From IMG/VR virus record IMGVR_UViG_3300031088_000734: a DNA stretch of 64,000 nucleotides. One strand, given 5' to 3'. Shown here piece after piece: positions 7,044-44,368 of this stretch (positions are counted from its first letter, which is position 1; each line of letters opens with the position of its first letter). A program made the translations under genes and the position numbers. Below the pieces are notes generated by a model, which ran no database searches, had not been told where the DNA came from, and worked only from the letters and a program-made list of their open reading frames with translations. This stretch comes from a virus.

Positions 7044-7691
7044 ATGAGAAAATCAATTACTGTCAATACCATTGAAGAACTGAAATCAGTTGCATTTGAT
7101 TATAATGCTCCTGTTTTTGTTGGCCCTGACATTCTGATTAGCGATTTTATTTCGACGGATGATGAATGTGATAAACTTATTGAAAAATTGAAACCTTATC
7201 ATACAAATGTGATTGCTTTCTGTTTTCATCATGATGGTTTTCGTGTTCATTTTTTGATGATTGATAGCTTTGTCGTCTTAAAAAAATATGGAATTGAAAA
7301 TGTAACGATTATGAATTTGAAAAAATTTGTCGTTCACTCTATTCGTTTTGATTCTGGAACTCATGAGTGGAATGAGAAGGAGTTTTATTCATACAAACGT
7401 GGAAATAAACCTGTCAGTGTGAGTCGAAACTATGCTTCGTTTATTGCAAAATACGCTCATGTTTATGATAAGACCTATGTCAGTGAGATCAGAGTTACAG
7501 ATAACTCTCAATACCTGATTGATATGACGTTTAGTCACAATGGTCGCAAGATTACATTGAATGAGTTGGGTGCAGAATATCCAGAGATGGTAACAGCATT
7601 GCGTGGTAAGGTTCGATCAGTTGAAAACTTGACCAACAAAAGTAAATTGATTAAATCATTTTTACCCATCATTGATATGATACTTATTTAA
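7044..7691 (+). CDS. hypothetical protein with C-terminal Met(-4) motif
   Basis: ends LPIIDMILI. Confidence 0.75.
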   Translation: MRKSITVNTIEELKSVAFDYNAPVFVGPDILISDFISTDDECDKLIEKLKPYHTNVIAFCFHHDGFRVHFLMIDSFVVLKKYGIENVTIMNLKKFVVHSIRFDSGTHEWNEKEFYSYKRGNKPVSVSRNYASFIAKYAHVYDKTYVSEIRVTDNSQYLIDMTFSHNGRKITLNELGAEYPEMVTALRGKVRSVENLTNKSKLIKSFLPIIDMILI

Positions 7692-7695
7692 AGGA

Positions 7696-8331
7696 TTGAT
7701 TATGCTTCATATAAAAAACATTGCACAATTAAAGGAATGCTTGTTATCAGATAAATTGACAGGCTTATTTATTACTCCAGTTGAAGAATTTGTAAAATCA
7801 GGTGACATTATTAAATATGATAATCGTGCTGAATATTTTTATCAACTTGATGATGTGTCTTTTATTAAATTTCAAATCAGTCAAAATGTTATTGTCTTCA
7901 AAGGTTATTGCATTAAACCTGAAAAACATTATGTATACCATCGTTTAAATAATAAGCCAGCCACATTGTTTTACTTAAAAAATGGTGAACTCAATACAAC
8001 GAGTTGGTTTATTAATGGAAGCTCTGTTCGAGAACACCCTATGCAACCTGTCATGGTTGAACATTGTGATGGCGATTACTGGAAATTTCAATACGCAAAA
8101 ACAGAAGATGAGTTCTTTGAAATATCTTATATCATTTTTGACAAGAAAAAGACTGGAACATTAAAGATCTTGGATATGTTAGTTCGATACCGTGGAGAAA
8201 ACCTTAATCTTAAACATATCAAAAAACGTTATCCTTTCATTGAAGACCTTACATTTGAAGATTGCTATGATCTCAGTATCAACATTTTTACAGATGATCA
8301 AATTACTTTAATGAGAATGATTGATATTTGA
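7696..8331 (+). CDS. hypothetical protein with C-terminal Met(-4) motif
   Basis: ends ITLMRMIDI. Confidence 0.75.
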   Translation: MIMLHIKNIAQLKECLLSDKLTGLFITPVEEFVKSGDIIKYDNRAEYFYQLDDVSFIKFQISQNVIVFKGYCIKPEKHYVYHRLNNKPATLFYLKNGELNTTSWFINGSSVREHPMQPVMVEHCDGDYWKFQYAKTEDEFFEISYIIFDKKKTGTLKILDMLVRYRGENLNLKHIKKRYPFIEDLTFEDCYDLSINIFTDDQITLMRMIDI

Positions 8332-8336
8332 AATCA

Positions 8337-8434
8337 GCAATATAATGCAGGTTATTCATTCATTTTGGCACCTAATCGGCAATATAATGCAGATTAAGGT
8401 GCTTTTTAGTATCAAAAACTGCAATATAATGCAG
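8337..8434. repeat. three identical 14-bp direct repeats GCAATATAATGCAG with 42-bp period
   Basis: copies at 8337-8350, 8379-8392, 8421-8434 separated by two different 28-bp spacers, between convergent genes. Confidence 0.85.
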
Positions 8435-8436
8435 TC

Positions 8437-9270
8437 TCAACACTCAATCATCTCAATCAATTTTAAATAATCCATAAAAGCCACTTTGTTTGGACCGTTT
8501 AAATTTTCATAAAATATTTTGTTTACAATTTTGAACCAGTTTCTGTTTTCAAAATCAATACTGGTATAATCTAGAATGCTAGTATCCACATCGGTTTTCA
8601 TAGCATTCACATGGTTCACAAACTTTATCAGTAAGTGTTCATTTTCTGGTGTCCCATAGTCATCAAGATAATATTTAATGCCAGTTGACTCTAAAAAATT
8701 CTTAGTTTCAAAGTTTTTCTTACAAATTTTATGGTCTTTATCAAAAAAATAAGTCATAGAGTTTGCATGAAATTGTTGTTTTTTTATTTTGTCTAATAGA
8801 TCTGGGGTTTTGAAACAATGTTTTTTTATTAAAGAATAAATGGAGCCTGTAAGATCAGTGTCGAGATAAAAATTTAAATTCATAGATGGATCATTGAAAT
8901 GATCGATGTTTAAATGTTTTATGAGTCCTGTTTCTGACTGTCCACCTTCATAATGAGAACTGTAATGTGTTTGTCTCCCATTTTCATCATAATAGACATA
9001 GATTGGCATTTCAAAATAACAATCAAACAGTTCATACAGGTTAAAAGTAAAGGTAATGATAATACAATCTTTTGTTTTCTCATTTGCGTGAAAAGATGTT
9101 TCATTTTCTTCTAAATGTAGATGTTCTTGAATCAATTCAAGTGTGATATCTGGATTATTGTTGATTGCATTTATTTTCTCACACATTAAGGCATGCACAA
9201 TTTGAAAATGCCTAGGTTTAAGCATTTCCTTAGTGGATAATTCTTTGTAGTGTGGAAAAAATAATTTCAT
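8437..9270 (-). CDS. hypothetical protein, tandem paralog 1 of 3, Met(-4) motif
   Basis: similar to 9290 and 10079 along its length; ends LKLIEMIEC. Confidence 0.8.
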   Translation of the reverse strand: MKLFFPHYKELSTKEMLKPRHFQIVHALMCEKINAINNNPDITLELIQEHLHLEENETSFHANEKTKDCIIITFTFNLYELFDCYFEMPIYVYYDENGRQTHYSSHYEGGQSETGLIKHLNIDHFNDPSMNLNFYLDTDLTGSIYSLIKKHCFKTPDLLDKIKKQQFHANSMTYFFDKDHKICKKNFETKNFLESTGIKYYLDDYGTPENEHLLIKFVNHVNAMKTDVDTSILDYTSIDFENRNWFKIVNKIFYENLNGPNKVAFMDYLKLIEMIEC

Positions 9271-9289
9271 TTTGGTGTCCTTTTATTTC

Positions 9290-10063
9290 TTAAATTGTCA
9301 TCATCTCTATTAATTTTATATTATCACCTTTTAATGCATTTAAAAATGCATTATAAACTTTTTTAAACCATTCTGGCTTACTGAAATCTAATTTTGAATA
9401 GTTAAAAAACATAGCGTCAACACTTTCTTTTTGAATGATTATATGATTGACAAACATTAAAAATAGACGTTCTGTCTTCAAATTTTCAAATCCTTTAAAT
9501 GAATAAATTGTCTCATGCATTGTATTATTATCAGTAGTTTTGAATTTTTTATACTTTACTTTATGACTGTTATCAAAATAATATCTTAACGTTACTGTTT
9601 TTAAATGAGACATTGGTGTTTGTATGTAATCGTGTTTTACAATTTGATAACCTAATTCTAATTCGCTTTTATTTAAATGAAATTCAAGATAAGAATGCCC
9701 ATCATCAAAATGATCAAGGTTTAACAGCTTCATAATTTCTGATCTTTTTATTGAACCCACATAACGTGATTTCCATTTTTTGAATTTTCCGTCCGCATTG
9801 AAGAAAATAGTAAAAGGTATTCTAAATTTTAAATCAAATAAAACAATATCAAAATTAATGATTACAAACTCTTCTATTGAATAAGAATGAATTTGATGAT
9901 CTACTATTTTTAAACTTTCGATAATCAAGTTTTTGTTAAGTGCTACATTATTATTTATTGCATTTAATTTATCGCATATTAATGCATGCACAATTTCAAT
10001 ATGTTCACTTTTCAACACTTTTTCAGTTGACAAATCTTTATAATCTGGATTCCAAAATTTCAT
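9290..10063 (-). CDS. hypothetical protein, tandem paralog 2 of 3, Met(-4) motif
   Basis: shared KLNAINNN, LNxDHF, YYFDNSHKV; ends IKLIEMMTI. Confidence 0.8.
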   Translation of the reverse strand: MKFWNPDYKDLSTEKVLKSEHIEIVHALICDKLNAINNNVALNKNLIIESLKIVDHQIHSYSIEEFVIINFDIVLFDLKFRIPFTIFFNADGKFKKWKSRYVGSIKRSEIMKLLNLDHFDDGHSYLEFHLNKSELELGYQIVKHDYIQTPMSHLKTVTLRYYFDNSHKVKYKKFKTTDNNTMHETIYSFKGFENLKTERLFLMFVNHIIIQKESVDAMFFNYSKLDFSKPEWFKKVYNAFLNALKGDNIKLIEMMTI

Positions 10064-10078
10064 TTTTTTATATCCTTT

Positions 10079-10882
10079 TTAAATATTTATCATATCAATC
10101 ATTTTCATGTAATCCAAGAATGCAACACGTTTATCACCTGTTAATAGTCTAAAAAATGTTGCATGTGCTTTTTTTGCCCAATATGTATCATCAAAATTGA
10201 ATGTATTATAATCAATAAACCCAATATCAGTATGTTCTTGTGCATTTGTAATGTGTCGCAAGAAGCTAAGAAATAAAATTTCTGATGATACTTTTTCAAA
10301 ACCATCAATAGAATAACTTGATGTTCCAGCACCATTAACAGTATAGTTCACTGTTTCAAAACTTTTGCAGTGAACTGTGTGATTTTTATTGAAATAGTAT
10401 TTTAATTTTAATCTTTTCTTAGGATAATCTGGCAACTTAACATCGTTTAATTTTATAATCGTATACACTTCATTGATGCTGTCGTCTTTCAATGAAAACT
10501 CAAGATGTGATCGGTCATCTTTAAAATGATTTATATTCAATATATTCATTATTTCTGGATATCTTGGATCACCTTCATAATAGGATAGCCATTGAGTATA
10601 TTGACCACTATTATTAAAATAGGCATTCACTGCCAAACAGAAGGTAAAATCGAAAAATTTAACGTATAGATTGAAGGTTACATACTCTTTTGATTTGTAA
10701 AAATTTGTATTGGTATTAATAATTTTAACATTTTCTTTAATGATTTCTTTATTTAATTTAGGATTATTATTCATGATAGCAAACTTATCACATAACATTG
10801 ATTGTAAAATGTCTTTTTGATTGTCTGTCAAATTAGGAAATTTTTCTAATTCGTAATGGTTTGAAAATGTTAGTGACATCAT
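10079..10882 (-). CDS. hypothetical protein, tandem paralog 3 of 3, Met(-4) motif
   Basis: shared LCDK..IMNNN, LNINHF, YYFNKNHTV; ends MKMIDMINI. Confidence 0.8.
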   Translation of the reverse strand: MMSLTFSNHYELEKFPNLTDNQKDILQSMLCDKFAIMNNNPKLNKEIIKENVKIINTNTNFYKSKEYVTFNLYVKFFDFTFCLAVNAYFNNSGQYTQWLSYYEGDPRYPEIMNILNINHFKDDRSHLEFSLKDDSINEVYTIIKLNDVKLPDYPKKRLKLKYYFNKNHTVHCKSFETVNYTVNGAGTSSYSIDGFEKVSSEILFLSFLRHITNAQEHTDIGFIDYNTFNFDDTYWAKKAHATFFRLLTGDKRVAFLDYMKMIDMINI

Positions 10883-11455: not shown

Positions 11456-11458
11456 TCA

Positions 11459-13280: not shown

Positions 13281-13282
13281 TT

Positions 13283-14109: not shown

Positions 14110-14733
14110 TTGTTAAGTCCAACAGAAAGAAACACATTCATAAAAACGGCACTTCAATTCGCTGAGAAACATAAACTTCCAACGAATAATTATCTAGGCA
14201 AGTCTCGCCTTTCATTTCATAATGATAAACATGAAGAATTTGTGCCAAATCATTATTTTGATTATTCAGCGTATGCTTCAATTATCTTTAAAGACTTCAA
14301 ATTACAACATTCGAATTTAAAACTCATACAAATGTTAGATCCTTATATTAAGAATTTGAATATTAAAATTGATTTTGAGCGACTTAGATTGCATCAGTAT
14401 TACAAAATTGGTTTAAAGCCAGATTACACATCACTTGAAGATGTCTTATATTTAAGCACTCAACTGGTTAGTATTAATCCTACTAAAGAAGTTCAAGATA
14501 GAATAACGATTCGATATTATTTGACACCTATCGAAACGTATTTTAAACAATCGATTTTCCCACGCTCTTTTAATATTGATGGTTTTGTGTTGCATGTTTA
14601 TTACAAGGATATTGAGTCATCTCTCTTTGCTCTGCTAGAAGCGAATAAACAAAAAATTGAAGATATTCTTGGATACCATATTGATCATATTAATCAAGAT
14701 ACGGTGAATCTCTTAGATATGACAATGATTTGA
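14110..14733 (+). CDS. hypothetical protein, paralog of 14828, Met(-4) motif
   Basis: LKPDYTSLEDV vs LKKDYTSLQDV; ends NLLDMTMI. Confidence 0.75.
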   Translation: MLSPTERNTFIKTALQFAEKHKLPTNNYLGKSRLSFHNDKHEEFVPNHYFDYSAYASIIFKDFKLQHSNLKLIQMLDPYIKNLNIKIDFERLRLHQYYKIGLKPDYTSLEDVLYLSTQLVSINPTKEVQDRITIRYYLTPIETYFKQSIFPRSFNIDGFVLHVYYKDIESSLFALLEANKQKIEDILGYHIDHINQDTVNLLDMTMI

Positions 14734-14827
14734 AGCTAGCTCATTTTTGTTGACGACATTTATAAAATATGCCATAATATAGCATCATTAACTGTCACTA
14801 CAGACAACAGACTTCTTGGGCTTTTTT

Positions 14828-15457
14828 ATGACTACAACAAACCCTGACATCGACTATTTCAAATCAATTTTTGCAGAGTTCTCTGCTGAGCATCAATTGA
14901 AAGTGGACAAGTATTCATCACGAAGACTTTTGAGCTTTTATACACATGAGTTCAAACCACTTATGCTGCATAAATTGGACATTGATGCTGTTGCTCCACT
15001 GGTGTTAAAGCCTTTCAAAGCTTTTAATGTCGAAAGACTGGTCAAAAAAGCAAAAATCATCTTTGATGAGTTTGTTGATGAACGTCTTGAAGGTTTTATA
15101 TTACCCGATTTTTACGATACCTTTGAAACGCATACTATTCAATCTGTTGTATTGAAGAAGGATTATACCAGCCTTCAAGATGTGGCTTATTATCAGGTCG
15201 AATTGATTAGTGACAAAAAACCTACTCGCATTTTTATTAATTTTCATACTGAGCCTGTTACACCATCTTATCGTAGAGACAGCAATAAACGAGGCTCTAT
15301 TAAATATCTCATTGCTGATGTTTACTATAAAGATATGGAATCTATTAAAGAACCTATGTTTGCTTATTATTTAACTGAAGTGAGCGAATTTCTCCAAACT
15401 CCGGTTACTGACATGAGTGAAAATGTCTTAACTTTGATTGAAATGGCAAAAATCTAA
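14828..15457 (+). CDS. hypothetical protein, paralog of 14110, Met(-4) motif
   Basis: own promoter TTGACG 14750 / CATAAT 14773; ends TLIEMAKI. Confidence 0.75.
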   Translation: MTTTNPDIDYFKSIFAEFSAEHQLKVDKYSSRRLLSFYTHEFKPLMLHKLDIDAVAPLVLKPFKAFNVERLVKKAKIIFDEFVDERLEGFILPDFYDTFETHTIQSVVLKKDYTSLQDVAYYQVELISDKKPTRIFINFHTEPVTPSYRRDSNKRGSIKYLIADVYYKDMESIKEPMFAYYLTEVSEFLQTPVTDMSENVLTLIEMAKI

Positions 15458-15536: not shown

Positions 15537-16622
15537 ATGTCTACGTTTAAAGCTACTGTTCTTTCAGTCATTGTTGAGCCACATCCTAACGCTGATGCGA
15601 TTGAACTGGCTCGCGTTGGTGATTTCTTTTCGATTATCCAAAAGGGATACTTGAAAACTGGCGACTTGGCTGTTTATATCCCAGAAGGTGCTCTTGTTCC
15701 TGAATTCATTCAAGAAGAAGTAGGTTGCCTTGGTAAATTGGCAGGTTCCAAGAAAAACCGTTTGAAACCATCTATGCTTCGTGGCGTCCTTAGCCAAGGT
15801 CTTTGCTTTAAGGCCCGTGAAGGCTGGGAAATCGGTGATGATAAAGCCGAAGAATTGGGTATCGTGAAATACGAAGCTCCTATTCCAGCATCCATGAATG
15901 GTGAGATTACCAACGTAGGCATTGAAAACACTTTCCACTTTGACATTGAAAACGTTAAACGCTACCCTGATGTATTGGTAGCAGGTGAAGAAGTCATTAT
16001 GACTGAAAAATTGCACGGCACGTTCACTGTTGCGGGTAGTGTGTATGGTAAAGATCCAATCCCACACACTGTTAATGGTCGCTCTTTCGTGAGTAGCAAA
16101 GGGTTCTTTAACAAAGGTTTGGTGCTTCGTGATAACGAACAAAATGCTCATAACATTTACATTCGTGTAGCGAAGAAATTTAACCTTTACGACATTACGG
16201 CTATCCTGTCAGACCGTTACAAAACCAACGCTTACATTTCAGGTGAAACGTTTGGTGCTGTTCAAGACTTGACTTATGGTCTTGAAGCTGGTGTGTTTGA
16301 TTTCCGTGTGTTCAACGTGTTCCTTGGAAATCGTAGTGATGCAAAAGGCGTGTTTGCAGTTAATGATGATGTGTTGGAAGAGATTCTTGCTGAATTCAAC
16401 TTGAAACGTGTGCCAGTGCTTTACAAAGGGCCATTCAGTAAAGAAGTGATGTTGAAACACACTGATGGTCTTGAAACCTACTCAGGTCAAGAAACGCACA
16501 TTCGTGAAGGGCTTGTTATTGAGCCACTTATTCAGCGTCGTGACCCAACTATTGGGCGTGTTGTCTTGAAAAGTGTTTCAACTGCTTACTTGTCGCGTAA
16601 AGGTGGCACTGAGCTTAACTAA
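15537..16622 (+). CDS. RNA ligase, DRB0094 (Rnl5) family
   Basis: N-terminal OB-like module (PHPNADAIELARV), motif I TEKLHGT, SGETFG, FRVFNV, REGLVI, LKSVSTAYL; promoter TTGACG 15475 / TATAAT 15498. Confidence 0.9.
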   Translation: MSTFKATVLSVIVEPHPNADAIELARVGDFFSIIQKGYLKTGDLAVYIPEGALVPEFIQEEVGCLGKLAGSKKNRLKPSMLRGVLSQGLCFKAREGWEIGDDKAEELGIVKYEAPIPASMNGEITNVGIENTFHFDIENVKRYPDVLVAGEEVIMTEKLHGTFTVAGSVYGKDPIPHTVNGRSFVSSKGFFNKGLVLRDNEQNAHNIYIRVAKKFNLYDITAILSDRYKTNAYISGETFGAVQDLTYGLEAGVFDFRVFNVFLGNRSDAKGVFAVNDDVLEEILAEFNLKRVPVLYKGPFSKEVMLKHTDGLETYSGQETHIREGLVIEPLIQRRDPTIGRVVLKSVSTAYLSRKGGTELN

Positions 16623-26434: not shown

Positions 26435-26944
26435 ATGAAATTCTTTCTGTTGGTCAGTGTTGGAATACTCAGTGTTTTGTTAGCCACTGCCAATGAGCCA
26501 TTCAACAGAAAATTACCTTATACTTTGTCTATTACTGACAGTCAAAAACAATTGAATTTTTCTGTTCCTACCTCTGTTGGTACCATTTCATACTTTTCTA
26601 CCAATGAAAACAACGAAACATTGTTGACGCAGTGTTTGGCTGGTATTGATGTTATGAACCAAGAACATATCAAGCGTTTAAACTACAACAATAAACAGAT
26701 AGATGCAGACATCACGGTTTTTGTCATGTCAAAAAATGATGACCTATTTAAAGCAATGGTTATTTATTCAAAATTAGATGATAATTCTATTCAAAACAAA
26801 TCAACTGAAAACCTCTGCAATTCTTTAAATGGTTCTTATTCAACAAAAAAATGGATGGTTGATCTTTCGTTCAACAAAATTACTTCAATTGCATTGAATG
26901 AGAACAATCAGCTATATTTGAAGATAGCCAAATATACTGACTAA
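26435..26944 (+). CDS. exported protein, divergent member of a four-gene tandem array
   Basis: signal peptide; C-terminal W...I.L...N.LY like neighbours. Confidence 0.7.
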   Translation: MKFFLLVSVGILSVLLATANEPFNRKLPYTLSITDSQKQLNFSVPTSVGTISYFSTNENNETLLTQCLAGIDVMNQEHIKRLNYNNKQIDADITVFVMSKNDDLFKAMVIYSKLDDNSIQNKSTENLCNSLNGSYSTKKWMVDLSFNKITSIALNENNQLYLKIAKYTD

Positions 26945-27003
26945 CTAGAATTGTAATCAGTATTTAACCTAGTATACTACTTATACAATTAGGAGGATTT
27001 ATC

Positions 27004-27510
27004 ATGTTTAAAAATTTTATTGCTGCTAGTCTTTTAATATCATCAGGTTTTGTGTATGCAGAAAATATTGTGGATGAAAAACCTTATATTCTTTATGTGA
27101 CAGATAAACAACATAAAATTAGCAATGTTTTAAGACTTGATGTTGATGGATTTCCATCTTCTGGTGGTGGAATACTTAAAGAAAAAAATAAAACCACTGA
27201 TTGTAACCTAGAACCTTATGATTTTGAAGTTTATTCGTCCACTGATCAATTTTCTGGTATGTCTGTAAGAACCTTATCTCAAACTAGAGAGATTTTTCAT
27301 ATTGTGTTTAAATTAACCTACACTGAAGACTTTTCTACTGAAAATGCTATTAAGTTGAACGATACTTGCACTATTGCGAATAATGTCTCTACTTCTGTTG
27401 ATGTCCAATGGGCGGGTGATATTCAGTTTGGAGAAAAGAAAGTTATTAAGCTTCCTAACAAGAATGAACTCTATATGGAAGTGTTGAAAGGATATCCGAT
27501 TGACATTTAA
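27004..27510 (+). CDS. exported protein, tandem paralog
   Basis: signal peptide; C...N.VSTSVDVQWAGDI. Confidence 0.8.
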   Translation: MFKNFIAASLLISSGFVYAENIVDEKPYILYVTDKQHKISNVLRLDVDGFPSSGGGILKEKNKTTDCNLEPYDFEVYSSTDQFSGMSVRTLSQTREIFHIVFKLTYTEDFSTENAIKLNDTCTIANNVSTSVDVQWAGDIQFGEKKVIKLPNKNELYMEVLKGYPIDI

Positions 27511-27579
27511 ATATATATTTTAATATGATTGTATTAATCATTTAATTAACTTATAATAAAATTTTATTAGGAGTTAATT

Positions 27580-28110
27580 ATGCTAAAAACCATATTTATA
27601 ACAAGTTCTTTACTTATATCATCTATGTCTGCATATGCGGATGTTGCGTCTTACAAAATTGACATCAAAGAGAAACTTGATGACAGTTCATTTTCAATTA
27701 CAACACCGATGGGCAGCATTGTTCCATTCCAAAAAGGTGGAAATCCATTAAAAAATGAAAAGTGTTCTATTGTCTTGAATGATGGCACTACAAAAACAGA
27801 ATTTGAAACGAACCAAATAAAGTCAGATAAAAATAATACCTTAACTGCATCTGTATATCCTGTTTCTATTGATGGTGATAAAGTTAAATTTGTATTGGTG
27901 TATAGTAAGCAAGATATGATGACTTCACAAGAGGCTCAAGACTTCATGCAGATTGGTGAAAACTGTAAGTTCCATAACTCAGTTGTTCATGCAGTCTCTA
28001 CTGATGTCCATTGGGCTGGTGATGTAACGTTAGGTAAACATACCACTATTCCAGTATCTTCAAATAATTCAATTGATGTACTTATTACAGAAGTTAAACC
28101 AACTAAATAA
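27580..28110 (+). CDS. exported protein, tandem paralog
   Basis: signal peptide; VYPVSIDGDKVK, STDVHWAGDV, two Cys. Confidence 0.8.
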   Translation: MLKTIFITSSLLISSMSAYADVASYKIDIKEKLDDSSFSITTPMGSIVPFQKGGNPLKNEKCSIVLNDGTTKTEFETNQIKSDKNNTLTASVYPVSIDGDKVKFVLVYSKQDMMTSQEAQDFMQIGENCKFHNSVVHAVSTDVHWAGDVTLGKHTTIPVSSNNSIDVLITEVKPTK

Positions 28111-28137
28111 TAGCTCACTCATTTCTGGAGATTTACA

Positions 28138-28671
28138 ATGTTAAAAAAAATGTTAATTGCAAGTTCATTGACACTTATTTCATTATCAGCTTTTGCTGAT
28201 GTCGTTGCACCACCTTTATACAGTATTGAGGTTATAGATACTGATGGGGTCGTTAACCATTCTGTCTTTTCGGTTACCACACCTATCGGTAAAGTAATGC
28301 CTGTTAAAGTGACACAAGAAAATAAAGATAATTCGACTAATTGTTCACTTTCTCTAAAAGACAATAACGAACTTACAGAATTAAACGTTGAACAAAAAAA
28401 CAGTATAGGCATTACATCAACGGTTTATCCGATGTCTATTGATGGTGATAACGTTAAACTTATGTTGACTTACAGTAAACAAGATGATGTCTCTTCAGAT
28501 AAAGCTATTGAATTAAGCAATACCTGTCATTTTGCGAATGCTGTTTCAACAACGACTAATGTTCAATGGTTAGGTAATGTTGAGCTTAATGAAAAAACAA
28601 AAATCCCATTAACTGGTAAAAACAGCTTGTTTGTTCTTATCAAGAAAGTTAATCCTAATGACAACCATTAA
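28138..28671 (+). CDS. exported protein, tandem paralog
   Basis: signal peptide; VYPMSIDGDNVK, TTNVQWLGNV, two Cys. Confidence 0.8.
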   Translation: MLKKMLIASSLTLISLSAFADVVAPPLYSIEVIDTDGVVNHSVFSVTTPIGKVMPVKVTQENKDNSTNCSLSLKDNNELTELNVEQKNSIGITSTVYPMSIDGDNVKLMLTYSKQDDVSSDKAIELSNTCHFANAVSTTTNVQWLGNVELNEKTKIPLTGKNSLFVLIKKVNPNDNH

Positions 28672-29311
28672 TATCAATCAAGCCGTTAAACATAGCTGTC
28701 AACAACTAGGCTTTCCACAAGAATTTGTGGACTGCTTAGATATTGAGGCTGTATTGGCTGCAGAAAAACAACAAAAAACCATTTTAGCCATCAATTCGAA
28801 TTATTCTGGTTCAATTGACATTCATTCTAAACTGACTGATTCTGTTAACAAGTATAGTATTTGCGTAACATTTGATAATCCAGTTGATTTTCTAGAAAAA
28901 CGATCTTTATTTAATCAAATACACGAAGATTCATTTTGTTTCTTTAATCTTATTTTTGATCATAATTTCAACTTTGTGTCTTTTTCATTACCCTATTGTT
29001 TCCATGCCGAGCATGTATATGAAGAAATTGAGCATGATTTTGTCATCTTTTTTAAATTTGATATTGATAATCAATTAATAGGTTTAGAAGTCCGTGAATT
29101 TCGAGAAAACGATGAATTTTTTATGACCTCAAAGTCAAGCCATCTGTTAATGCCGATTGCTGATGAACTTTTATTGGTTGAATTCCTACGTTACAAATAC
29201 AGTCCAGAAATGATAGAACTCATTCCCGAATTTACCATACCAACAGCTTATGATTTTACATCTTCAGATCTTGAAAGTCGAATACAACTTGCCAGAATGA
29301 TAAAGTTTTAA
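28658..29311 (+). CDS. hypothetical protein with C-terminal Met(-4) motif
   Basis: ends IQLARMIKF. Confidence 0.7.
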   Translation: MTTININQAVKHSCQQLGFPQEFVDCLDIEAVLAAEKQQKTILAINSNYSGSIDIHSKLTDSVNKYSICVTFDNPVDFLEKRSLFNQIHEDSFCFFNLIFDHNFNFVSFSLPYCFHAEHVYEEIEHDFVIFFKFDIDNQLIGLEVREFRENDEFFMTSKSSHLLMPIADELLLVEFLRYKYSPEMIELIPEFTIPTAYDFTSSDLESRIQLARMIKF

Positions 29312-31323: not shown

Positions 31324-31453
31324 CATACAGTAACACCAATAAAAGGCGGCTATGTCGCCTTTTTTCAGTTTGTTTTAATAGTTAAGAATAATATTTTCAT
31401 TGACCATATCTACAAAAAATAGTATAATTAGCCAAATCCTACGGAGTTATGCG

Positions 31454-32005
31454 ATGAATACCATTATCTCAAAAACCAAAGAAAAAACCGTCAATTCTAT
31501 TCTTTTTTCATGCACTTTAAACATAGCACTCATCATTGGTGGAGTTTACTTGGCTTACCTATCGTTAGTATGGACGTATCAACACTGGGCGATGATTTCT
31601 GGTTCTGTTGCTTCGTTCTTCTTGATGTTTAAACCTGCCAAAGATTTTTTGGTTAGTCATCTTGGAAAACTCTTTATCGTATGGGCAGTGATGACGGCTT
31701 GGTTTTTTTGCTTAAATTCTAAACTGGACAAAGAAAATCTTGAATTCGACTCCGTAGCAATGAATATCACTGATATTTTCATGTTCTTGGTTCCTTTCTT
31801 GGGTTTTATTGTCTTTGGAACAGTGCCCTTTAAACTCGATAGTTCATTGATTTTAATCAGCGTTATATCAAGTGTTATTTCTTTTGTGTGTTGTCTATTT
31901 TGGATTTGTATTGTCGGAATGCATCTTGAGAATATTTTTTCGAAAAAAGAATATGGTACAGTAATGGAAGATAATCCAGAACAATTGAAATTAGACTTGC
32001 TTTAA
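31454..32005 (+). CDS. multi-pass membrane protein, paralog of 32124, C-terminal QLKLDL
   Basis: shared ILFSCTLNI / IMLSCTFNI, HLGKxFIxW, PEQLxL. Confidence 0.8.
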   Translation: MNTIISKTKEKTVNSILFSCTLNIALIIGGVYLAYLSLVWTYQHWAMISGSVASFFLMFKPAKDFLVSHLGKLFIVWAVMTAWFFCLNSKLDKENLEFDSVAMNITDIFMFLVPFLGFIVFGTVPFKLDSSLILISVISSVISFVCCLFWICIVGMHLENIFSKKEYGTVMEDNPEQLKLDLL

Positions 32006-32123
32006 ACCTATATTCATCAAAAGATAAGAAAAGACGCATTAACAGCGTCTTTTTTTGTTTTTTTTATTTGACTTATTACTAATAAATAATATTATATATT
32101 CAATTTATTGGAGTTATTATATT

Positions 32124-32657
32124 ATGGAAAAAGTTAAGAAAAGTTTAAGCTCTATTATGCTTTCATGTACATTCAATATAGTGCTTACTGGCGTAGTTTT
32201 TTATTTGTTATATTTATTATTAGGTTATATTAGTGATAATTGGAATACCATTAGTACCAGTATCATTTCTTTTATGAATCTTTTTATACCACTTAAAAAT
32301 TTTTTGTTTGCACATCTTGGAAAAATATTTATTGGCTGGTCTATATTCGCTCTTTGGCTGCTATGTGTATGTGTCAAAATGGAAGAAAATGAAATCAAAG
32401 AATCAGGCATAATTAATTTCATAGGTTTCTTAATGTTGCCTATTGGATCAATTGTTTTCTTCATGATTCCTTTTGCACTCGGTTGGGAATGGTTTCCAGT
32501 CAATGTTTTTTCTATTTTAGCTAGTATCGTTCTGCTTGTTTTCTTTATTGGGGTAATTTGTATTTTCTTTGGTTTAGATACTGGTGACCAACCAGAAAAT
32601 GTAGAAAGTACAGATATTGATGCTCCTGAGCAATTAGAGCTATTTGATAAAAAATAA
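32124..32657 (+). CDS. multi-pass membrane protein, paralog of 31454, C-terminal QLELF
   Basis: same motifs; both genes are followed by an AAAAGACGC...GCGTCTTTT terminator. Confidence 0.8.
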   Translation: MEKVKKSLSSIMLSCTFNIVLTGVVFYLLYLLLGYISDNWNTISTSIISFMNLFIPLKNFLFAHLGKIFIGWSIFALWLLCVCVKMEENEIKESGIINFIGFLMLPIGSIVFFMIPFALGWEWFPVNVFSILASIVLLVFFIGVICIFFGLDTGDQPENVESTDIDAPEQLELFDKK

Positions 32658-32745
32658 AACAACAGTCCGACGAAAAGACGCTTTCATAGCGTCTTTTTTT
32701 TGCTTTATTGTTTTCATCATGGTATTATAACCAAATCAAAAAAAT

Positions 32746-33375
32746 ATGAGGTTATCATCAGTGATTAATGTAATTACCAACAAAAAAATGATTGAAAAAA
32801 TTAAAATGGGTTTAAATTCTGAGTTGGTTGATCATCCTGCCATTCGAATTGATCATTGGGTCTATAATGCTGTTATCTTTCGAGAACTGTCCTATGACCA
32901 GAACGGCTTTAAACGTCCTGCTGATATTATTAATTACCTTTACTGTTCTTCTTACAACGACTTCTTGAAGGCTTATAAAGTCACTAAAAGTAGCTTTGTT
33001 TTTGAAACGTTCAGACGCTATAAACATTATGCACTTGAATACACCACACCTACTGAAACCTATTATTTCACAGTAAGCTATAACTCAGAACGTGGCATGG
33101 ATATTAATTTCTATCCCCATATGATTGCTTCTGGTTTTGATCCAGCGGCCCGTGATGATTTTAATGGCGAAATGTATTTGGTTTATTCAAAGATTATGTA
33201 TGAATTCTTGACAGAATTCTACGCAGACATTTTAAACCATCTTTTCGACACTTATGATTTGGCTTCCATTATTGACTATTTCAGCAAGTCATACCGCCAT
33301 TCAGTGGGTGCTGTTGAAATTTTGACCGATTATGAACAATCTAGGGACATTACCTTGATTATGCCAAAATTGTAA
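32746..33375 (+). CDS. hypothetical protein (ends MPKL, possible Met(-4) member)
   Basis: 209-aa ORF after TGGTATTAT. Confidence 0.7.
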   Translation: MRLSSVINVITNKKMIEKIKMGLNSELVDHPAIRIDHWVYNAVIFRELSYDQNGFKRPADIINYLYCSSYNDFLKAYKVTKSSFVFETFRRYKHYALEYTTPTETYYFTVSYNSERGMDINFYPHMIASGFDPAARDDFNGEMYLVYSKIMYEFLTEFYADILNHLFDTYDLASIIDYFSKSYRHSVGAVEILTDYEQSRDITLIMPKL

Positions 33376-33441
33376 TCATTGAATAGACAAAAATGTTGGA
33401 ATATGTTAATATGGAAGTTCACTTTTTTAAGAGATCTTTCC

Positions 33442-34620
33442 ATGACACTTCCGACATTATCTCAATTGAACTCAAATCATGAACTGATTAAAGATTTACT
33501 TCTAAAAAAAAATCTAACCATGTCCGAATATCCAGTAGCAGATTGGCAAAAAATTGTACCGGGTAAAACTGATTTTGCTTTTTGTTCTGGCCCCATTAAG
33601 TTGACTGCTCTTACAGTGTACGCCATTCAATCGGAAACTATTTTTTATTCTGTCATCTTCCCTGAGTATTCCAACAATCAAATTCGTCAGCTCACTACTT
33701 TGCTTGATTTTGTTAAAACTATTTTAAAAGAAAAACCTTCAACTTACGAACCATATAATAAATTTACGCTGGCTAATAATTGTTTAATTGTTGACAATAA
33801 AAAAATCAGTTTATTTTCTAATAATAATAAAGTTTTTTTAAGCAAGTACTCTACTGTAAACCTTGTAGACAAATTATTGTTGCCTGATTTAAGCTTTGAA
33901 ACATTGTATTCAACTATTTTAAATGATTTTAACGAAAAAATCAGTGTTATGCTTAATTCTGAGTTAGCTACCATCAATACTACCAGTATAATTCGATTAC
34001 AAGAAGAAACAAATGAAGAGTTTATTACTAGAACTCATAAAAATCGTATTGTAAAAGCATTGAGCGTTACTGCGTTTAAACAGCATGTCGATGGTCTATA
34101 TCTGCCTATTCAATCTATTCCTTATGATGTAAAAAATAAATCATTGGATAGTAATTCAATGTATTTTATGGATGTTTATGGTCGAGATAAATTTGCAATA
34201 GGTATTCAAAAAATTAATAAATTAAAAATGATGTTGTCTCCATTAATGTCTGATAATGACATTAATCAACTGGTTCAATTGCTATCGATAGCTCAATTTC
34301 ATAGCCACTTGTTACATGCTGAATTTAATAATAATTGTGTCGAATTTTCACAAAAAGATCTTTCGCTTTTATCAAAAGAAAGTTTGTCTAATAATCCAGT
34401 CTATATGGAATTTTCAATCGGTATTTTTGATTTTGAAATTACTGATAAATTTAAAATTGATAACTATATGGGGGATGGTGAGCAATATTTCTTAACCATT
34501 AATGAAGCCTATGACTATCTATTGGATTACATTCAACAAGATATTTGCAAGGTGTTGCATGCCGATGTTGAGAATGTTTGTAATAAAGATCTTCTTGTTA
34601 TTGATATGATGACCTGTTAA
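33442..34620 (+). CDS. hypothetical protein; C-terminal part paralogous to 34623; Met(-4) motif
   Basis: KFAIGIQKI...LSIAQFHSHL matches KFLIGVQRI...LSIAQFYSYL; ends LVIDMMTC. Confidence 0.75.
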   Translation: MTLPTLSQLNSNHELIKDLLLKKNLTMSEYPVADWQKIVPGKTDFAFCSGPIKLTALTVYAIQSETIFYSVIFPEYSNNQIRQLTTLLDFVKTILKEKPSTYEPYNKFTLANNCLIVDNKKISLFSNNNKVFLSKYSTVNLVDKLLLPDLSFETLYSTILNDFNEKISVMLNSELATINTTSIIRLQEETNEEFITRTHKNRIVKALSVTAFKQHVDGLYLPIQSIPYDVKNKSLDSNSMYFMDVYGRDKFAIGIQKINKLKMMLSPLMSDNDINQLVQLLSIAQFHSHLLHAEFNNNCVEFSQKDLSLLSKESLSNNPVYMEFSIGIFDFEITDKFKIDNYMGDGEQYFLTINEAYDYLLDYIQQDICKVLHADVENVCNKDLLVIDMMTC

Positions 34621-34622: not shown

Positions 34623-35186
34623 ATGATTAATAATATAGAGTTATCTTTAAATTTAAAGGAATTTTTAATATATGTTGAGTCATTGAACATTGGTATGGAA
34701 CCTATTTCTTATTATTATTCAATTAACATGGATTACAAAAAAAGACTATGTGTGGTGACGGAAGATAGCAAAACTAAATTTTTGATAGGGGTTCAAAGGA
34801 TACAATATTTACGACAGATTTTAAAACCATTAATGGTTGATAAAAATATTAGTCAACTAATTCATATGCTTTCAATCGCTCAATTTTATAGCTATTTATT
34901 TTACAATGATGATTATTTCAATGGGACAGTTGATTTTTCTTATGTAGATAAATATGCATCTGATTATTTACAGTTTTCAGTAGGTGTTTTAAATTTTAAT
35001 ATTTTTGACAATAATATACAAGTTTATAATTGTGGTGACGATTATATATTTGGGTCATTTACTATTGAAGATACATATAATTTTTTCTTAAATTATATTC
35101 AACAAAAAATAATTGACCATTTACACGCTGATCGGGAGCAGATAACTAACAAAAATATTTTGCTTCTTGAAATGCTAAAAATTTAA
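34623..35186 (+). CDS. hypothetical protein, partial duplicate of upstream gene; Met(-4) motif
   Basis: ends LLLEMLKI. Confidence 0.75.
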   Translation: MINNIELSLNLKEFLIYVESLNIGMEPISYYYSINMDYKKRLCVVTEDSKTKFLIGVQRIQYLRQILKPLMVDKNISQLIHMLSIAQFYSYLFYNDDYFNGTVDFSYVDKYASDYLQFSVGVLNFNIFDNNIQVYNCGDDYIFGSFTIEDTYNFFLNYIQQKIIDHLHADREQITNKNILLLEMLKI

Positions 35187-37524: not shown

Positions 37525-37971
37525 ATGCAAATGCCTAATTTTAATGTCGGTGATGTTGTTGTTGACTTGACCAATATGGACAAATGGCGAGATCCAAAGG
37601 AGTTTAAATTGGAGTTGTTTCTATATGACTTCAATAAAAAAGTTTTGATAACTGATGCAACAAATTTTATTATCAAATCGAATTATGAACGCTATAACAC
37701 TTCTGCTTTCTTACCTGATTATGAACTGTTTTCTCAATCTACTGGCTTGAATGAAGCTAAGTCAAGAGTTCTTTTTAATTTGACACCACACAGGGCTGGG
37801 CTGGGTAAAGAATTTCAAAAACAGAATACACCAGAAGAACTTGTTCGTTTAAAATCTTCAATTGCGATGGATAGTGATGAGGATACGACACAATTTATTA
37901 TTGCTTTGAAAGATGCCTTCTTGGCCTATTTTGATAGTATTCATGAAGAAATCAAGCCACAAATTTCTTGA
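37525..37971 (+). CDS. hypothetical protein
   Basis: 148-aa ORF after promoter. Confidence 0.65.
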   Translation: MQMPNFNVGDVVVDLTNMDKWRDPKEFKLELFLYDFNKKVLITDATNFIIKSNYERYNTSAFLPDYELFSQSTGLNEAKSRVLFNLTPHRAGLGKEFQKQNTPEELVRLKSSIAMDSDEDTTQFIIALKDAFLAYFDSIHEEIKPQIS

Positions 37972-38022
37972 GCTTTTTGGTGTTTTTTGATAAAATATCT
38001 TCATAAATTAATCACATATTAG

Positions 38023-38298
38023 GTGGAAACTATGTCAAATCGCGTTATTACTATTAAAAAAGTCGGCACTGTTAACAATGTTATGTATCGAGACGTTTTG
38101 GTGGGATCTTTTCATGACGGGGACAATGACACCCTTGCCATGATTATTGATCGGGCTGTTGATGTTTACATTGAACGGCGAGCACCTGATTTGAAAGAAG
38201 CTTTTGAGCGAACCATTGATATGGCTTATGATATGGGCCGAAAAGGTCAAGGTATTGCTACAGCCAAAAAACTTATTTTGCTGGCTTGCTCGGCATAA
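38023..38298 (+). CDS. hypothetical protein
   Basis: 91-aa ORF; start GTG 38023 or ATG 38032. Confidence 0.7.
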   Translation: METMSNRVITIKKVGTVNNVMYRDVLVGSFHDGDNDTLAMIIDRAVDVYIERRAPDLKEAFERTIDMAYDMGRKGQGIATAKKLILLACSA

Positions 38299-38329
38299 CG
38301 TCAACTTTCTATCATTTTTGAGGCTTAAC

Positions 38330-38593
38330 ATGAACGCTATTACCATTACACATTTGCCCATGCAACAAGTCAGCAGTGTCGCCTACAAGGGAAAATTCAT
38401 TGGGCTTGCAGATGATGGAGATTCAGCCAAGCTGCAGCGGTTGGTTAATGAAGCTATGGTTCTTCATGACAAAGCTGAAAAAGAAAACTGGATTAAAACA
38501 ATGGTTAAAGTCTCTCGACTCGTGTATAATCTTGACAATGATGAGGTTTCTGAATCTCGTATGGTTGAAATGATTAAGGAGCGATTTGAATGA
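38330..38593 (+). CDS. hypothetical protein
   Basis: start moved to ATG 38330 after GAGG. Confidence 0.65.
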   Translation: MNAITITHLPMQQVSSVAYKGKFIGLADDGDSAKLQRLVNEAMVLHDKAEKENWIKTMVKVSRLVYNLDNDEVSESRMVEMIKERFE

Positions 38594-41735: not shown

Positions 41736-41848
41736 TCGTCCACTTATCAGCTAACCGTCTAGAACAAAACTAACAGGCACTTCGGTGCTTGTTTTTTTTT
41801 GAAAGTCGATCTATACTATTATACTGTTTTAATTTATGGAGGTTGCCA

Positions 41849-42169
41849 TTGTTTAAATTTGCTGTTTTGTTGAGTTTCACTGCTTTCCTTGCTGGTTGTG
41901 GTGGTGATACTGTAATTAGCCAAAATCCTCGTGAATTTATTGTTTTGGAATATGATAAACCTTATGGATTTAGCGTTACGCTTGAAGACGTGATTACTCA
42001 TGAGATCTATAAGGATGTGCCTGTTTCCACATCATGTGACGACTACCCAAAATTGAAAATTGATTCAATCTGGTCATTCCCTGTCACTACCTATGTTGAT
42101 AACTCTGGTAAATCCTATTCCGTGGTTGACGCCAGTGATTTGTGCGACAAATTAGAAAAAATGCTGTAA
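41849..42169 (+). CDS. lipoprotein
   Basis: TTG start after GGAGG; lipobox LAGC. Confidence 0.7.
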   Translation: MFKFAVLLSFTAFLAGCGGDTVISQNPREFIVLEYDKPYGFSVTLEDVITHEIYKDVPVSTSCDDYPKLKIDSIWSFPVTTYVDNSGKSYSVVDASDLCDKLEKML

Positions 42170-42215
42170 AAACTTTTCAATTTCTGTTATACTTAGGCAT
42201 TCTTCATGATAAAGG

Positions 42216-42899
42216 ATGTCTATTATGACTTCGCTTAATGCATTACTGTTTTCTATCTCAAATCTTAAAACACGTTTTAATCGTGAGAACCTTTCCGAAT
42301 TCATTCCATCTTGTTTTATATACCAGTCGGTATGTATTATAATCATGGCTTTGGCTTTTATTTATGGAATCAGCACTGATAATCGACAAATCATTGTATT
42401 CAGTTCCTTTAATGGCATTTCTTCAATCCTGCTATTCGGATTGGTGTTGTGGATGAACACCATTAAAACACTCCCTGATCGCTATTATAGTTGGTCTACT
42501 GTCATCAATTATTTGGGTGCGTTGGTTGCCATTCCTTATCTGGTGTTTATTGAACGTGAAGCGGGCAATATTGTCTCGATGCTCTTCTTTTTCATCAATA
42601 TTTTCAACTTTTGTGTACTTCTGCATATTTTGAATTTTCGGACTAACCATCACCATAGTTGGAATGCTCTTCGTCAAGTCACCAAATTGAAAAAAGGTTT
42701 TAAATTCAAACTGACTATGGGGTTACGCCTCCATATGATTATGCCTATTGGTTTAATCAGTATTCATTTTGAAAGCATTACTATCAATCATGTCGATTAT
42801 GATTTGTATTATCTCACACAACATTTCAAAGAATATGATCTTGACTTGTCGTCAGTTACTGATGCTGATTTGAAGCTTTGGGAAATGATTAAATATTGA
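42216..42899 (+). CDS. membrane protein, tandem paralog 1 of 3, Met(-4) motif
   Basis: four TM helices, PDRYYSxWS, soluble tail ending LKLWEMIKY. Confidence 0.8.
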   Translation: MSIMTSLNALLFSISNLKTRFNRENLSEFIPSCFIYQSVCIIIMALAFIYGISTDNRQIIVFSSFNGISSILLFGLVLWMNTIKTLPDRYYSWSTVINYLGALVAIPYLVFIEREAGNIVSMLFFFINIFNFCVLLHILNFRTNHHHSWNALRQVTKLKKGFKFKLTMGLRLHMIMPIGLISIHFESITINHVDYDLYYLTQHFKEYDLDLSSVTDADLKLWEMIKY

Positions 42900-42916
42900 T
42901 TAACTTCAGGTGACTT

Positions 42917-43585
42917 ATGAATAATACTTTATTGTTCGCACAACGTATGATTGTCGCTTATGCCACAGGATTTATTGGTATCCTATGTTCTATTCTTATC
43001 GCTGCCTTGCAGATAACAAAGACATCTAATACCAGTGATGTGCTATTGCTTTGTTTGGCTTGTGGCTTTGCAGTTGCTGTTTTTGTAATGTATCTGGATG
43101 GCCGTCCAGTGCTTAAACATATTCATTATTATTCAAAATACACCATGTTGAATTATGTGTTTAGCTTATATGTTGTAGCTCATTCAGTTTTCATGAGTGG
43201 TTCAAACCAATTATTTATATTATTGCCTGCCATGTTGCTAAGTTTTTTCAATATTTTCTTGTTTTCTAAGATCCATCATGGTCTTTCTGAGCATTTGGTT
43301 ATTCCAGAACTTCAACGATTGTATAGGCTGTTGCCAGAAATAAATAATGTTAATATTGATTTTGATTATACTTTTTTAAGAAAAACAGACCTTCTGATCT
43401 TTGAAAGACGATTTTTTAAAATCATGACAACAATGGGCGAGTTACTTTTTGATGGCCGTCATATTTATCTTAATGGTGAGCAATATGAAGTCGATGCCTT
43501 TGTGGCTGGATTTAAGGCTTGTGCGATTGATATCAACAGTTCAACACCAGAAGATGCTGTTGTTATGCAAATGTATTGTGTATAA
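42917..43585 (+). CDS. membrane protein, tandem paralog 2 of 3, Met(-4) motif
   Basis: four TM helices; tail ending VVMQMYCV. Confidence 0.8.
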   Translation: MNNTLLFAQRMIVAYATGFIGILCSILIAALQITKTSNTSDVLLLCLACGFAVAVFVMYLDGRPVLKHIHYYSKYTMLNYVFSLYVVAHSVFMSGSNQLFILLPAMLLSFFNIFLFSKIHHGLSEHLVIPELQRLYRLLPEINNVNIDFDYTFLRKTDLLIFERRFFKIMTTMGELLFDGRHIYLNGEQYEVDAFVAGFKACAIDINSSTPEDAVVMQMYCV

Positions 43586-43663
43586 TTTCAGCTAAACAGG
43601 TCATTTTTAGCTGTCTTATTTTCTTTCAATAGTGTATAATCAACATCTATTTGAATCAACGCC

Positions 43664-44368
43664 ATGAGGTGTTTTATGAAAGCATTACAGTATTTGAAAC
43701 AAATCACCCCCTTGTTTATTATGCGTCAATACAACTTGTCTGCATTTATTGTATTGTTGTGTTCTTGTTTTGGCATGTATCTCACCATGTCACATATGGA
43801 ACTGGGTGGCAATAAGTTTTTTATCATTGTGGGTGGTGTGACCTTAGTTACGCTGGGGTTCTCATTTACGCTTCACGCGATGAATTACTTTGCTATGCCT
43901 CCTGACCGATTCTACTCAGACTGGTCTTTGATGAATTATATTTTGGCTGGCGTTGTGTTATTGACCACGCTCACCATGCCAGAAGAAAGTCTTATTAACT
44001 ATTTGATTATTTTTTCTATTGCTATTCTCAACTTGTGTCTGTTTATGTCGAGTATGCAATTTAGAAGCACCCATTCAACCGAAATCAACAAAATGCGAAA
44101 GTTGTTCCCTGATGAAAAACAATTCAAGTTTGATTTTGACTTTGTTTTTGCCCGAGATTTCAAGGGTGTTGTCAATAAGAAAAAAGTCAACTTTGGTCTT
44201 TGTCTCTTAACCAACTCAGGTAAGATTGTTTTGGCGGGTGATCATTTTTATTTTGATGACAAACCTTATTCTGCTGAAAAGCTGGCAATCGACCTTAAAG
44301 AATGTGAGTTGAGCTTTAATAAGGCCAGCAAAGATGATTTGAAGGTTGTTGAAATGGCGACTTATTAA
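43664..44368 (+). CDS. membrane protein, tandem paralog 3 of 3, Met(-4) motif
   Basis: PPDRFYSDWS; tail ending LKVVEMATY. Confidence 0.8.
   Translation: MRCFMKALQYLKQITPLFIMRQYNLSAFIVLLCSCFGMYLTMSHMELGGNKFFIIVGGVTLVTLGFSFTLHAMNYFAMPPDRFYSDWSLMNYILAGVVLLTTLTMPEESLINYLIIFSIAILNLCLFMSSMQFRSTHSTEINKMRKLFPDEKQFKFDFDFVFARDFKGVVNKKKVNFGLCLLTNSGKIVLAGDHFYFDDKPYSAEKLAIDLKECELSFNKASKDDLKVVEMATY

Follow-up and report, generated by a model that had tools for sequence, protein, structure and literature searches.

Several short C-terminal tags direct many different proteins to a single machine, among them peroxisomal targeting signal 1 (PTS1), KDEL, clamp-binding tails, and type IV signals. Longer modules follow a similar plan: poxvirus ANK-PRANC/F-box proteins and Xanthomonas XVIPCD proteins of the type IV secretion system (T4SS) join a variable body to a constant C-terminal module that leads to one machine, and both belong to tandem-expanded families. 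Here, we describe a C-terminal tail with methionine exactly four residues from the end, Met(-4), in IMG/VR record IMGVR_UViG_3300031088_000734 (179,373 bases; GC content, 33.9%), a stretch of which, 64,000 nucleotides in length, is called the window. The ANK-PRANC/F-box and XVIPCD modules span 40 to 120 residues and form defined families, whereas the Met(-4) tail has ~12 residues and is unrelated to them in sequence. To our knowledge, no known tag shares the sequence of this tail, its sharpness (an invariant Met and an exact end), or the share of the proteome that carries it.

Among the secretion systems, Dot/Icm (type IVB) signals lie in the C-terminal residues, with a hydrophobic residue (Met in Lpg2844) at -3 or -4 that acidic residues precede (PMC3052360); the substrates include transmembrane and multipass effectors (PMC11602083). 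Like the Met(-4) tail, Dot/Icm signals stand at the C terminus of many otherwise unrelated, fast-evolving orphans, membrane proteins included; they are found on hundreds of such proteins and lie in the last 20 to 35 residues. The hydrophobic -3/-4 position of these signals is matched here by Met at -4 (109 of the 115 tails assessed) and by a hydrophobic residue at -3 in 62% of tails.

The element that encodes the tail is probably a giant, AT-rich megaplasmid of Enterobacteriaceae of the pMEGA type, judging from size, GC content, and gene content. pMEGA are very low-GC Enterobacteriaceae megaplasmids of 1.3 to 1.6 Mb without phage genes, their proteins are mostly novel, paralogues that are novel or immunity-like follow one another in long tandem runs in clade 2, and TrpRS, RNA ligase, sirtuin, and TnpB are carried (Guitor et al., bioRxiv 10.1101/2025.09.30.679422). 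In the same work, pMEGA4 encodes ClpX, ClpP, and three FtsH-like proteins and has a Dot/Icm-like type IVB system with homologues of the type IV coupling protein (T4CP), DotM, DotN, IcmW, and DotB; the word "C-terminal" occurs 0 times in the main text of that preprint (10.1101/2025.09.30.679422). Our record resembles these plasmids in its low GC content, mostly novel proteins, tandem paralogue runs, TrpRS, RNA ligase, sirtuin, and TnpB genes, and lack of phage genes. Orthologues of its tail-bearing proteins (carriers), which occur only in close relatives, lie on contigs of 773,483, 834,842, and 1,071,457 bases, so that the likeness extends to contigs above 1 Mb. The two differ in GC content (26% in pMEGA4 and 34% in the record), and the likeness comes from description, not from sequence. 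Such elements are apparently widespread in gut- and plant-associated Enterobacteriaceae.

A position-locked C-terminal tail

In a greedy set of 282 open reading frames (ORFs) covering the whole record, Met stands at -4 in 63 (22%), against a background Met frequency of 2.4% (binomial p 8e-41); at the other positions from -1 to -15, Met frequency is 0.4 to 4.6%. A proteome-wide count of this kind had been proposed as a check by the first-pass annotation, which listed 13 C-terminal heptads of the window, all present as written, and the background counts rule out chance or composition as the cause of the excess. Two diverged IMG/VR relatives (152 kb and 193 kb; GC content, 34%), which together with this record form a three-record set of 818 ORFs, show a like enrichment, with Met(-4) in 43 of 239 and 59 of 297 ORFs. 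The window itself holds 106 ORFs, of which 19 have Met at -4 and 14 of these fit the motif by a 12-column position-specific scoring matrix (PSSM).

The full motif, D/S/N(-11)-x-L-x-[LVI]-[LIF]-[DE]-M-h-x-[I/Y/L/C/V/F]-stop (h, hydrophobic), is present in ~50 ORFs of the record. Position -11 is D, S, or N; position -9 is L or I (82% hydrophobic); position -7 is 90% hydrophobic, with L, V, or I in 80% of tails and Q in none; and positions -6 and -3 are hydrophobic in 74% and 62%, respectively. The final residue is I (62%) or Y, L, C, V, or F, and position -2 is usually polar. Acidic residues occur at -5 (D or E, 62%), -11 (42%), and -14 (26%). The hydrophobic positions around Met(-4) interchange freely among L, I, V, and F. 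The methionine itself is far less flexible: where the other 11 positions fit, 109 tails in the three records have M at -4, 4 have A, and 2 have I. Two paralogues at record coordinates 1269 to 2309 (+) and 2322 to 3401 (+), ending in ELLVVEAIFI and ELMVIEAMFI, are natural variants, with complete tails in which Ala replaces Met(-4).

The tail is also locked to the end of the protein. With a PSSM threshold of ≥10, matches were found in 44 of 282 terminal segments compared to 2 of 49,458 internal segments in this record, and over the 818 ORFs there were 123 matches at the exact end, 1 with a one-residue extension, and 6 internal ones. Because the distance from Met(-4) to the free carboxylate is fixed, recognition of the terminus itself is indicated, as had been suggested from the window. 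The sole extended tail among the 124 (...DIDFLDMAMFK) belongs to an ORF in IMGVR_UViG_3300034157_000065 (37641 to 38573, minus strand, stitched coordinates) and may reflect recent movement of the stop codon or a copy in decay.

The codons under the motif vary, so the constraint acts on the protein and not on a nucleic acid element. The ATG of Met(-4) is preceded by GAT, GAA, GAG, AGA, or CAA, and the stop codon of carriers by ATT, ATC, TAT, TGT, GTA, or TTT. A cause at the DNA level, such as a conserved regulatory element or a start codon under the tail, is ruled out by this synonymous and nonsynonymous variation within residue classes.

Comparison of orthologues points to selection on the same segment. 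In reciprocal-best pairs, carrier bodies are 49 to 55% identical and their tails are 67% identical, whereas in noncarrier orthologues the order is reversed, with 73% identity in the body compared to 63% over the last 12 residues. Of the orthologue pairs with the two relatives, 24 of 26 and 36 of 38 retain Met(-4). No segment of family B is better conserved than the tail; a profile of this family found only 25 homologue clusters among 1.84 billion representatives, and the alignment of every one of them reaches the protein end. The 12 most distant clusters, which were read, all have the tail (12/12), with Met at -4 in 11 and Ile in 1. Conserved residues in families B and D concentrate in the last 50 to 65 residues and are not confined to the last 12. 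The Met(-4) tail is thus a real, strongly selected, position-locked C-terminal element on about one-sixth of the proteins of this element.

Carrier families, predicted folds, and cellular side

BLASTP sorts the carriers of the record into ~24 families and singletons. Profile-profile comparison on shallow alignments gave no link between carrier families. When alignments were deepened from the three records, family D matched the g7370 family, which lies outside the window, with 66% probability (E, 6e-5; 157 columns); g7370 against g129839 reached 13%, and every other family pair stayed below 7%. Family D was further joined to membrane family F by iterative hidden Markov model (HMM) search with the last 14 residues removed. 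Most family pairs are without likeness after tail removal, and the cross-family signal is restricted to the last 12 to 24 residues and the exact terminus: leave-one-family-out PSSM z scores are 3.8 for positions -8 to -1, 2.1 for -12 to -5, 1.0 for -24 to -9, and 0.5 for -40 to -25. The carriers had been described as at least five groups with no similarity elsewhere; this holds for most pairs, which share the tail only, but not for family D, which is linked to both F and the g7370 family. Since D has these links and carrier bodies change fast, common descent of many or even all carriers is conceivable from the sequence comparisons.

AlphaFold2 models were obtained for family B (17 sequences; predicted local distance difference test [pLDDT] score, 80; predicted template modeling [pTM] score, 0.77) and family D (15 sequences; pLDDT, 64). 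The family B model runs from N-terminal helices through a beta-meander of about ten strands to three helices, the last of which is the tail (residues 262 to 276; pLDDT, 75 to 88) and follows structured helices directly without a linker. Elements are arranged in the same way in the family D model, where the tail forms a helix at residues 203 to 214. Judging from the motif logo, hydrophobic residues would cover most of the surface of the tail helix. Cargo peptides of microcompartments or encapsulins, for comparison, are amphipathic helices borne on a flexible linker, in elements that also have shell genes. Foldseek searches with carrier models returned nothing at E ≤ 1e-3, and the ESM Atlas gave no usable match to carriers. 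The best VIA-align Z scores, 5.1 for family B (a cystatin or NTF2-like roll) and 5.9 for family D (a CdiI immunity protein), are within the stated noise of the tool. The best structural rows are small alpha+beta proteins of inhibitor or immunity types (cystatin, BLIP-like, CdiI, and TriTu immunity; Z, 4 to 6), a resemblance that may be taken as a hint on shape only.

Carriers are 175 to 416 amino acids (aa) long, mostly acidic and soluble, and lie in tandem paralogue arrays; the set of carriers differs in size by test, with 46 in the signal peptide comparison, 53 in the Pfam search, and ~50 by motif fit. In family F and g164925, a soluble C-terminal part comes after four transmembrane (TM) segments. 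The tail was confirmed on both strands, on soluble and four-TM proteins, and in many sequence families, as first noticed in the window. A signal peptide-like N terminus was found in 0 of 46 carriers compared to 24 of 236 other ORFs, and the tails of four-TM carriers come after an even number of TM segments and a basic N terminus. Because of these two features, the tails are expected to face the cytoplasm.

No carrier (0/53) matched Pfam at E ≤ 1e-3, and one weak PHROG match was found. Approximately 20 of 150 noncarriers have a Pfam domain, none from a phage structural family; these domains include TrpRS, RRF, CzcD, Sir2, two RNA ligases, GNATs, and methyltransferases, as well as an S26 peptidase, small trypsin-like proteases, TnpB, and a DEDDh exonuclease.

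A proposed docking helix for one partner and competing explanations

We give an about even chance to the reading that the tail serves all carriers as an unvarying docking helix, recognized at the C terminus by a single partner in the cytoplasm. Among the functions proposed from the window, docking on a common hub is still the best general reading, resting on a strictly terminal, selected, and shared tail. Because the Met is invariant while its neighbors vary, no extra residue is tolerated, and ~24 families are involved, one shared partner with a lock-and-key pocket is suggested, and because the Met stays fixed while the bodies diverge fast, that pocket should lie in a partner that does not diverge with the carriers. 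A pocket in a shared partner explains the invariance of Met in ~24 families better than packing of each tail against its own protein. We infer from this pattern a single external reader.

In such an arrangement, the fast-evolving orphan bodies, which are alpha+beta, recall inhibitor or immunity proteins in overall shape, and occasionally have a four-TM anchor, would supply the specificity of each carrier. The last 12 residues and the free carboxylate would plug into the shared partner, which would hold a methionine-specific pocket and be cytoplasmic or located on the inner face of the membrane. We rank the candidate readers as a Dot/Icm-type coupling complex, then an AAA+ protease or adaptor-docking site, and then a DNA clamp. 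The first of these, belonging to a Dot/Icm-type (type IVB) secretion/conjugation system, is the most concrete candidate, with roughly half of the weight that we place on a docking handle, and carriers would then be substrates passed into a recipient or target cell. In its favor are the signal features and transmembrane substrates known from Dot/Icm systems and the T4CP, DotM, DotN, IcmW, and DotB homologues reported for pMEGA4. The fuller proposal, in which the Met(-4) helix is an export or transfer signal and a Dot/Icm-like machine injects carriers into recipient or competitor cells with or ahead of DNA, is tentative and, taken by itself, fairly improbable. If true, the signal would be the first with a sharp consensus known from a type IVB system and would come with a ready catalogue of cargo, comprising several hundred substrates or about one-sixth of the proteome of a megabase-sized plasmid. 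More generally, the tail would sort orphan genes of newly recognized giant elements into one functional class, and the identity of the partner would indicate the purpose of ~18% of the genes of these elements.

Several observations weigh against a docking helix with a type IVB reader. Dot/Icm signals, which have an E-block or small polar residues upstream, are flexible, degenerate, and mostly disordered, whereas the tail is a rigid 12-residue helix with an invariant Met and an exact end. The predicted tail helix of family B is confident and continuous with the C-terminal helical subdomain, and the tail may therefore be packed into its own protein. Some carrier families (D and F; D and g7370) are remote homologues. 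The tail was found on no protein with a known enzymatic domain, and the contrast between carriers and noncarriers in Pfam is what one would expect of a single protein superfamily but would be surprising for an address label of general use. No reader was identified, and T4SS-DNA_transf was found in none of four searched records, which are fragments of a much larger element. Finally, the record has no match in complete Escherichia coli genomes, PLSDB, or the phage collection, and its presumed kinship to pMEGA is one of size, GC content, and gene content.

The strongest competing explanation, to which we assign a substantial minority of the weight, dispenses with a separate reader: the carriers would make up one or a few huge, diverging superfamilies, and the tail, as the last helix of their shared fold, would close the hydrophobic core or mediate self-association and outlast bodies under diversifying selection. 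The uniform character of the carriers, all of them orphans of similar size in tandem arrays without a known domain, is consistent with this explanation, as are the links of D to F and g7370 (and, far more weakly, of g7370 to g129839), the common order of elements in the B and D models with a confident terminal helix, and the extension of conservation in both families over the last 50 to 65 residues. Nevertheless, a structural helix should accept Leu or Ile and short extensions, yet residue -4 is Met in 109 of 115 tails and 123 of 124 tails end exactly. Most family pairs are dissimilar without the tail even when three-record alignments are used, and the same tail occurs on four-TM and soluble proteins. 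Under self-association, families would be expected to drift to their own tails, which is not observed.

Recognition by an AAA+ protease (ClpXP or FtsH-like, from the host or the element), either as a degron or as a tether of adaptors that hand over targets, is unlikely. The tail is C-terminal, largely nonpolar, cytoplasmic, and present on soluble and membrane proteins, and FtsH acts on both kinds of protein and accepts nonpolar C-terminal tails. A variable body with a constant tail also corresponds to the architecture of an adaptor, and ClpX, ClpP, and three FtsH-like proteins are among the reported products of pMEGA4. However, such genes were not found in the searched pieces, where the only proteases detected were four small trypsin-like proteins and one S26 signal peptidase, and the tail is unlike ssrA-type (LAA) and MuA-type ClpX motifs in that -2 is polar and acidic residues are frequent. 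In ssrA-like or nonpolar degrons, which are recognized by ClpXP, FtsH, or Tsp, the final three to five residues are nonpolar; the tail is hydrophobic at -1, -3, and -4 but usually polar at -2 and acidic at -5. We also know of no precedent for a degron on one-sixth of a proteome.

Tethering of carriers to a DNA sliding clamp by a clamp-binding peptide of the T4-family or proliferating cell nuclear antigen-interacting peptide (PIP) box type is very unlikely, although one known tail falls in the same pattern class. RB69 DNA polymerase ends in SLFDMFDF, i.e., L(-7) F(-6) D(-5) M(-4) F(-3) D(-2) F(-1), and its C-terminal peptide binds the gp45 clamp (PDB 1b8h; PMC3012046). T4-family tails (RB69 gp43 ...SLFDMFDF, T4 gp43 ...SLDFLFG, and gp55 ...SLDFLYEAND) resemble the Met(-4) tail as short hydrophobic/acidic C-terminal peptides and are bound by a hub in a hydrophobic pocket, and another membrane family of the element ends in a beta-clamp-like QL[DE]LF. 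The clamp tails are aromatic and belong to a few DNA and transcription enzymes, however, whereas the tails described here are aliphatic and belong to ~50 orphans, none of them a DNA enzyme. By PSSM, the RB69 tail scores -0.5 and the T4 tails score -11 to -19. The PIP-box consensus is Qxxhxxaa, where h is L, I, or M and a is aromatic (PMC3012046); the Met(-4) tail has no Gln at h-3 (position -7) and no aromatic pair, and an aromatic residue stands at -1 in 8 of 50 tails. Nor does the tail logo contain the Gln-Leu core of the bacterial beta-clamp motif (QL[SD]LF or QLxLxL). The gp45-family domains PF09116 and PF02916 gave no match in the 179-kb record, itself a fragment, and fifty clients per 179 kb would be implausible.

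Three other candidates were rejected. Periplasmic PDZ proteases as readers are inconsistent with cytoplasmic tails and the absence of carrier signal peptides, and a membrane-targeting amphipathic helix of the MinD/FtsA type is inconsistent with an acidic polar face. A T4 prohead protease site (cleavage after L/I-x-E, which would fall between LIE and M) conflicts with the lack of capsid genes, the presence of Asp, Arg, or Gln at -5, and the occurrence of the tail on membrane proteins.

Nature of the record and features of the window

The first-pass annotation had framed the tail as phage encoded and offered capsid loading as one function, but neither proposal is supported. The record has no terminase, no phage hallmark gene was found in it, no phage structural Pfam family occurs among the ~20 domain-bearing noncarriers, and orthologues are on contigs of 0.77 to 1.07 Mb. 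T4CP, gp45-type clamp, and PolB were found in none of the four searched records, all of which are fragments. No relatives of carriers were found in GTDB species genomes, PLSDB, the phage collection, or complete E. coli genomes. IMG/VR labels the record and its two relatives as "provirus" with 55 to 59% completeness. Because no phage hallmark gene was found and orthologues lie on contigs of up to 1.07 Mb, this label probably misclassifies part of a megaplasmid.

The window contains 14 carriers, namely the 13 first listed and ORF 32746; the number by which each was listed is the low coordinate of the ORF (the start on the plus strand and the stop on the minus strand). Two singletons open the series: A1 (7044 to 7691, +; 215 aa; ending in PIIDMILI; PSSM, 21.2) and A2 (7696 to 8331, +; 211 aa; ITLMRMIDI; PSSM, 18.1), and the orthologue of each keeps the tail. 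Three family B paralogues follow on the minus strand at 8437 to 9270 (277 aa; LKLIEMIEC), the member to which the modeled tail helix at 262 to 276 belongs, 9290 to 10063 (257 aa; IKLIEMMTI), and 10079 to 10882 (267 aa; MKMIDMINI). Family C is represented on the plus strand at 14110 to 14733 (207 aa; VNLLDMTMI) and 14816 to 15457, with a start perhaps at 14828 (213 aa; LTLIEMAKI). The family D carrier (28658 to 29311, +; 217 aa; IQLARMIKF) is one of nine paralogues in the record and has its modeled tail helix at 203 to 214.

Farther along the plus strand, a singleton at 32746 to 33375 (209 aa; DITLIMPKL) had been named only as a weaker candidate and proved to be a carrier (PSSM, 11.0; orthologues end in ITLIMPAL). 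Family E has members at 33379 to 34620, with a start perhaps at 33442 (413 aa; LLVIDMMTC), and 34623 to 35186 (187 aa; ILLLEMLKI). Three members of membrane family F, all on the plus strand, complete the set. The first (42216 to 42899; 227 aa; LKLWEMIKY) has four TM segments, at 26, 58, 94, and 116, and a soluble C-terminal part; the second (42917 to 43585; 222 aa; AVVMQMYCV) is the weakest fit (PSSM, 5.7), with orthologues ending in VMQMFCI and VLEMFCV; and the third spans 43664 to 44368 (234 aa; LKVVEMATY). The two remaining weaker candidates, ORFs 44950 and 45222, were rejected as carriers (PSSM, -6.9 and 1.4), as they lack hydrophobic residues at -6, -7, and -9 despite Met(-4) and Cys(-1). 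They are overlapping basic 90-aa paralogues (44950 to 45228, + and 45222 to 45494, +) ending in KMNGC and KMKRC, share no further position of the motif, and form a separate small family of noncarriers.

Other paralogous groups lie among the carriers. The membrane family with the beta-clamp-like ending is present at 31400 to 32005 (+) and 32055 to 32657 (+) as multipass proteins that end in PEQLKLDLL and PEQLELFDKK, and (P/K)EQL[DEK]L[FD], a sequence similar to the beta-clamp motif QL[SD]LF, is retained close to the C terminus in six of the seven members found in the three records. No homology was found between the TM domains of this family and those of family F, and hence there is no sign of tail swapping. 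Four tandem ~170-aa paralogues at 26435 to 28671 (+) have clear signal peptides (sites AYA/D and VYA/E), no tail, and no Pfam match. Four trypsin-like (Pfam Trypsin_2) paralogues of 193 to 241 aa are found at 48400 to 48981 (-), 49051 to 49638 (-), 62328 to 63038 (+), and 63140 to 63865 (+); three reach Trypsin_2 at E ≤ 1e-3, no PDZ domain was detected in the four, and no PDZ family is listed in the Pfam matches of the noncarrier set.

Orphan proteins of 550 to 610 aa are encoded directly upstream of carrier arrays at record coordinates 176411 to 178069, 151107 to 152825, 152837 to 154663, and 32247 to 33929 (all minus strand), a layout that recalls loci with a toxin plus poly-immunity genes. 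Three of the four were scanned (152837 to 154663 was left out), with no Pfam match beyond a weak one to AAA_19. Two RNA ligases are likewise situated among carrier arrays: one with PF09414 and a PHA02142 OB domain (15537 to 16622, +) and one of the T4 Rnl1 type with PF09511 (30109 to 31323, +), whose best phage match is in Ralstonia phage RsoM2USA (43.5% identity).

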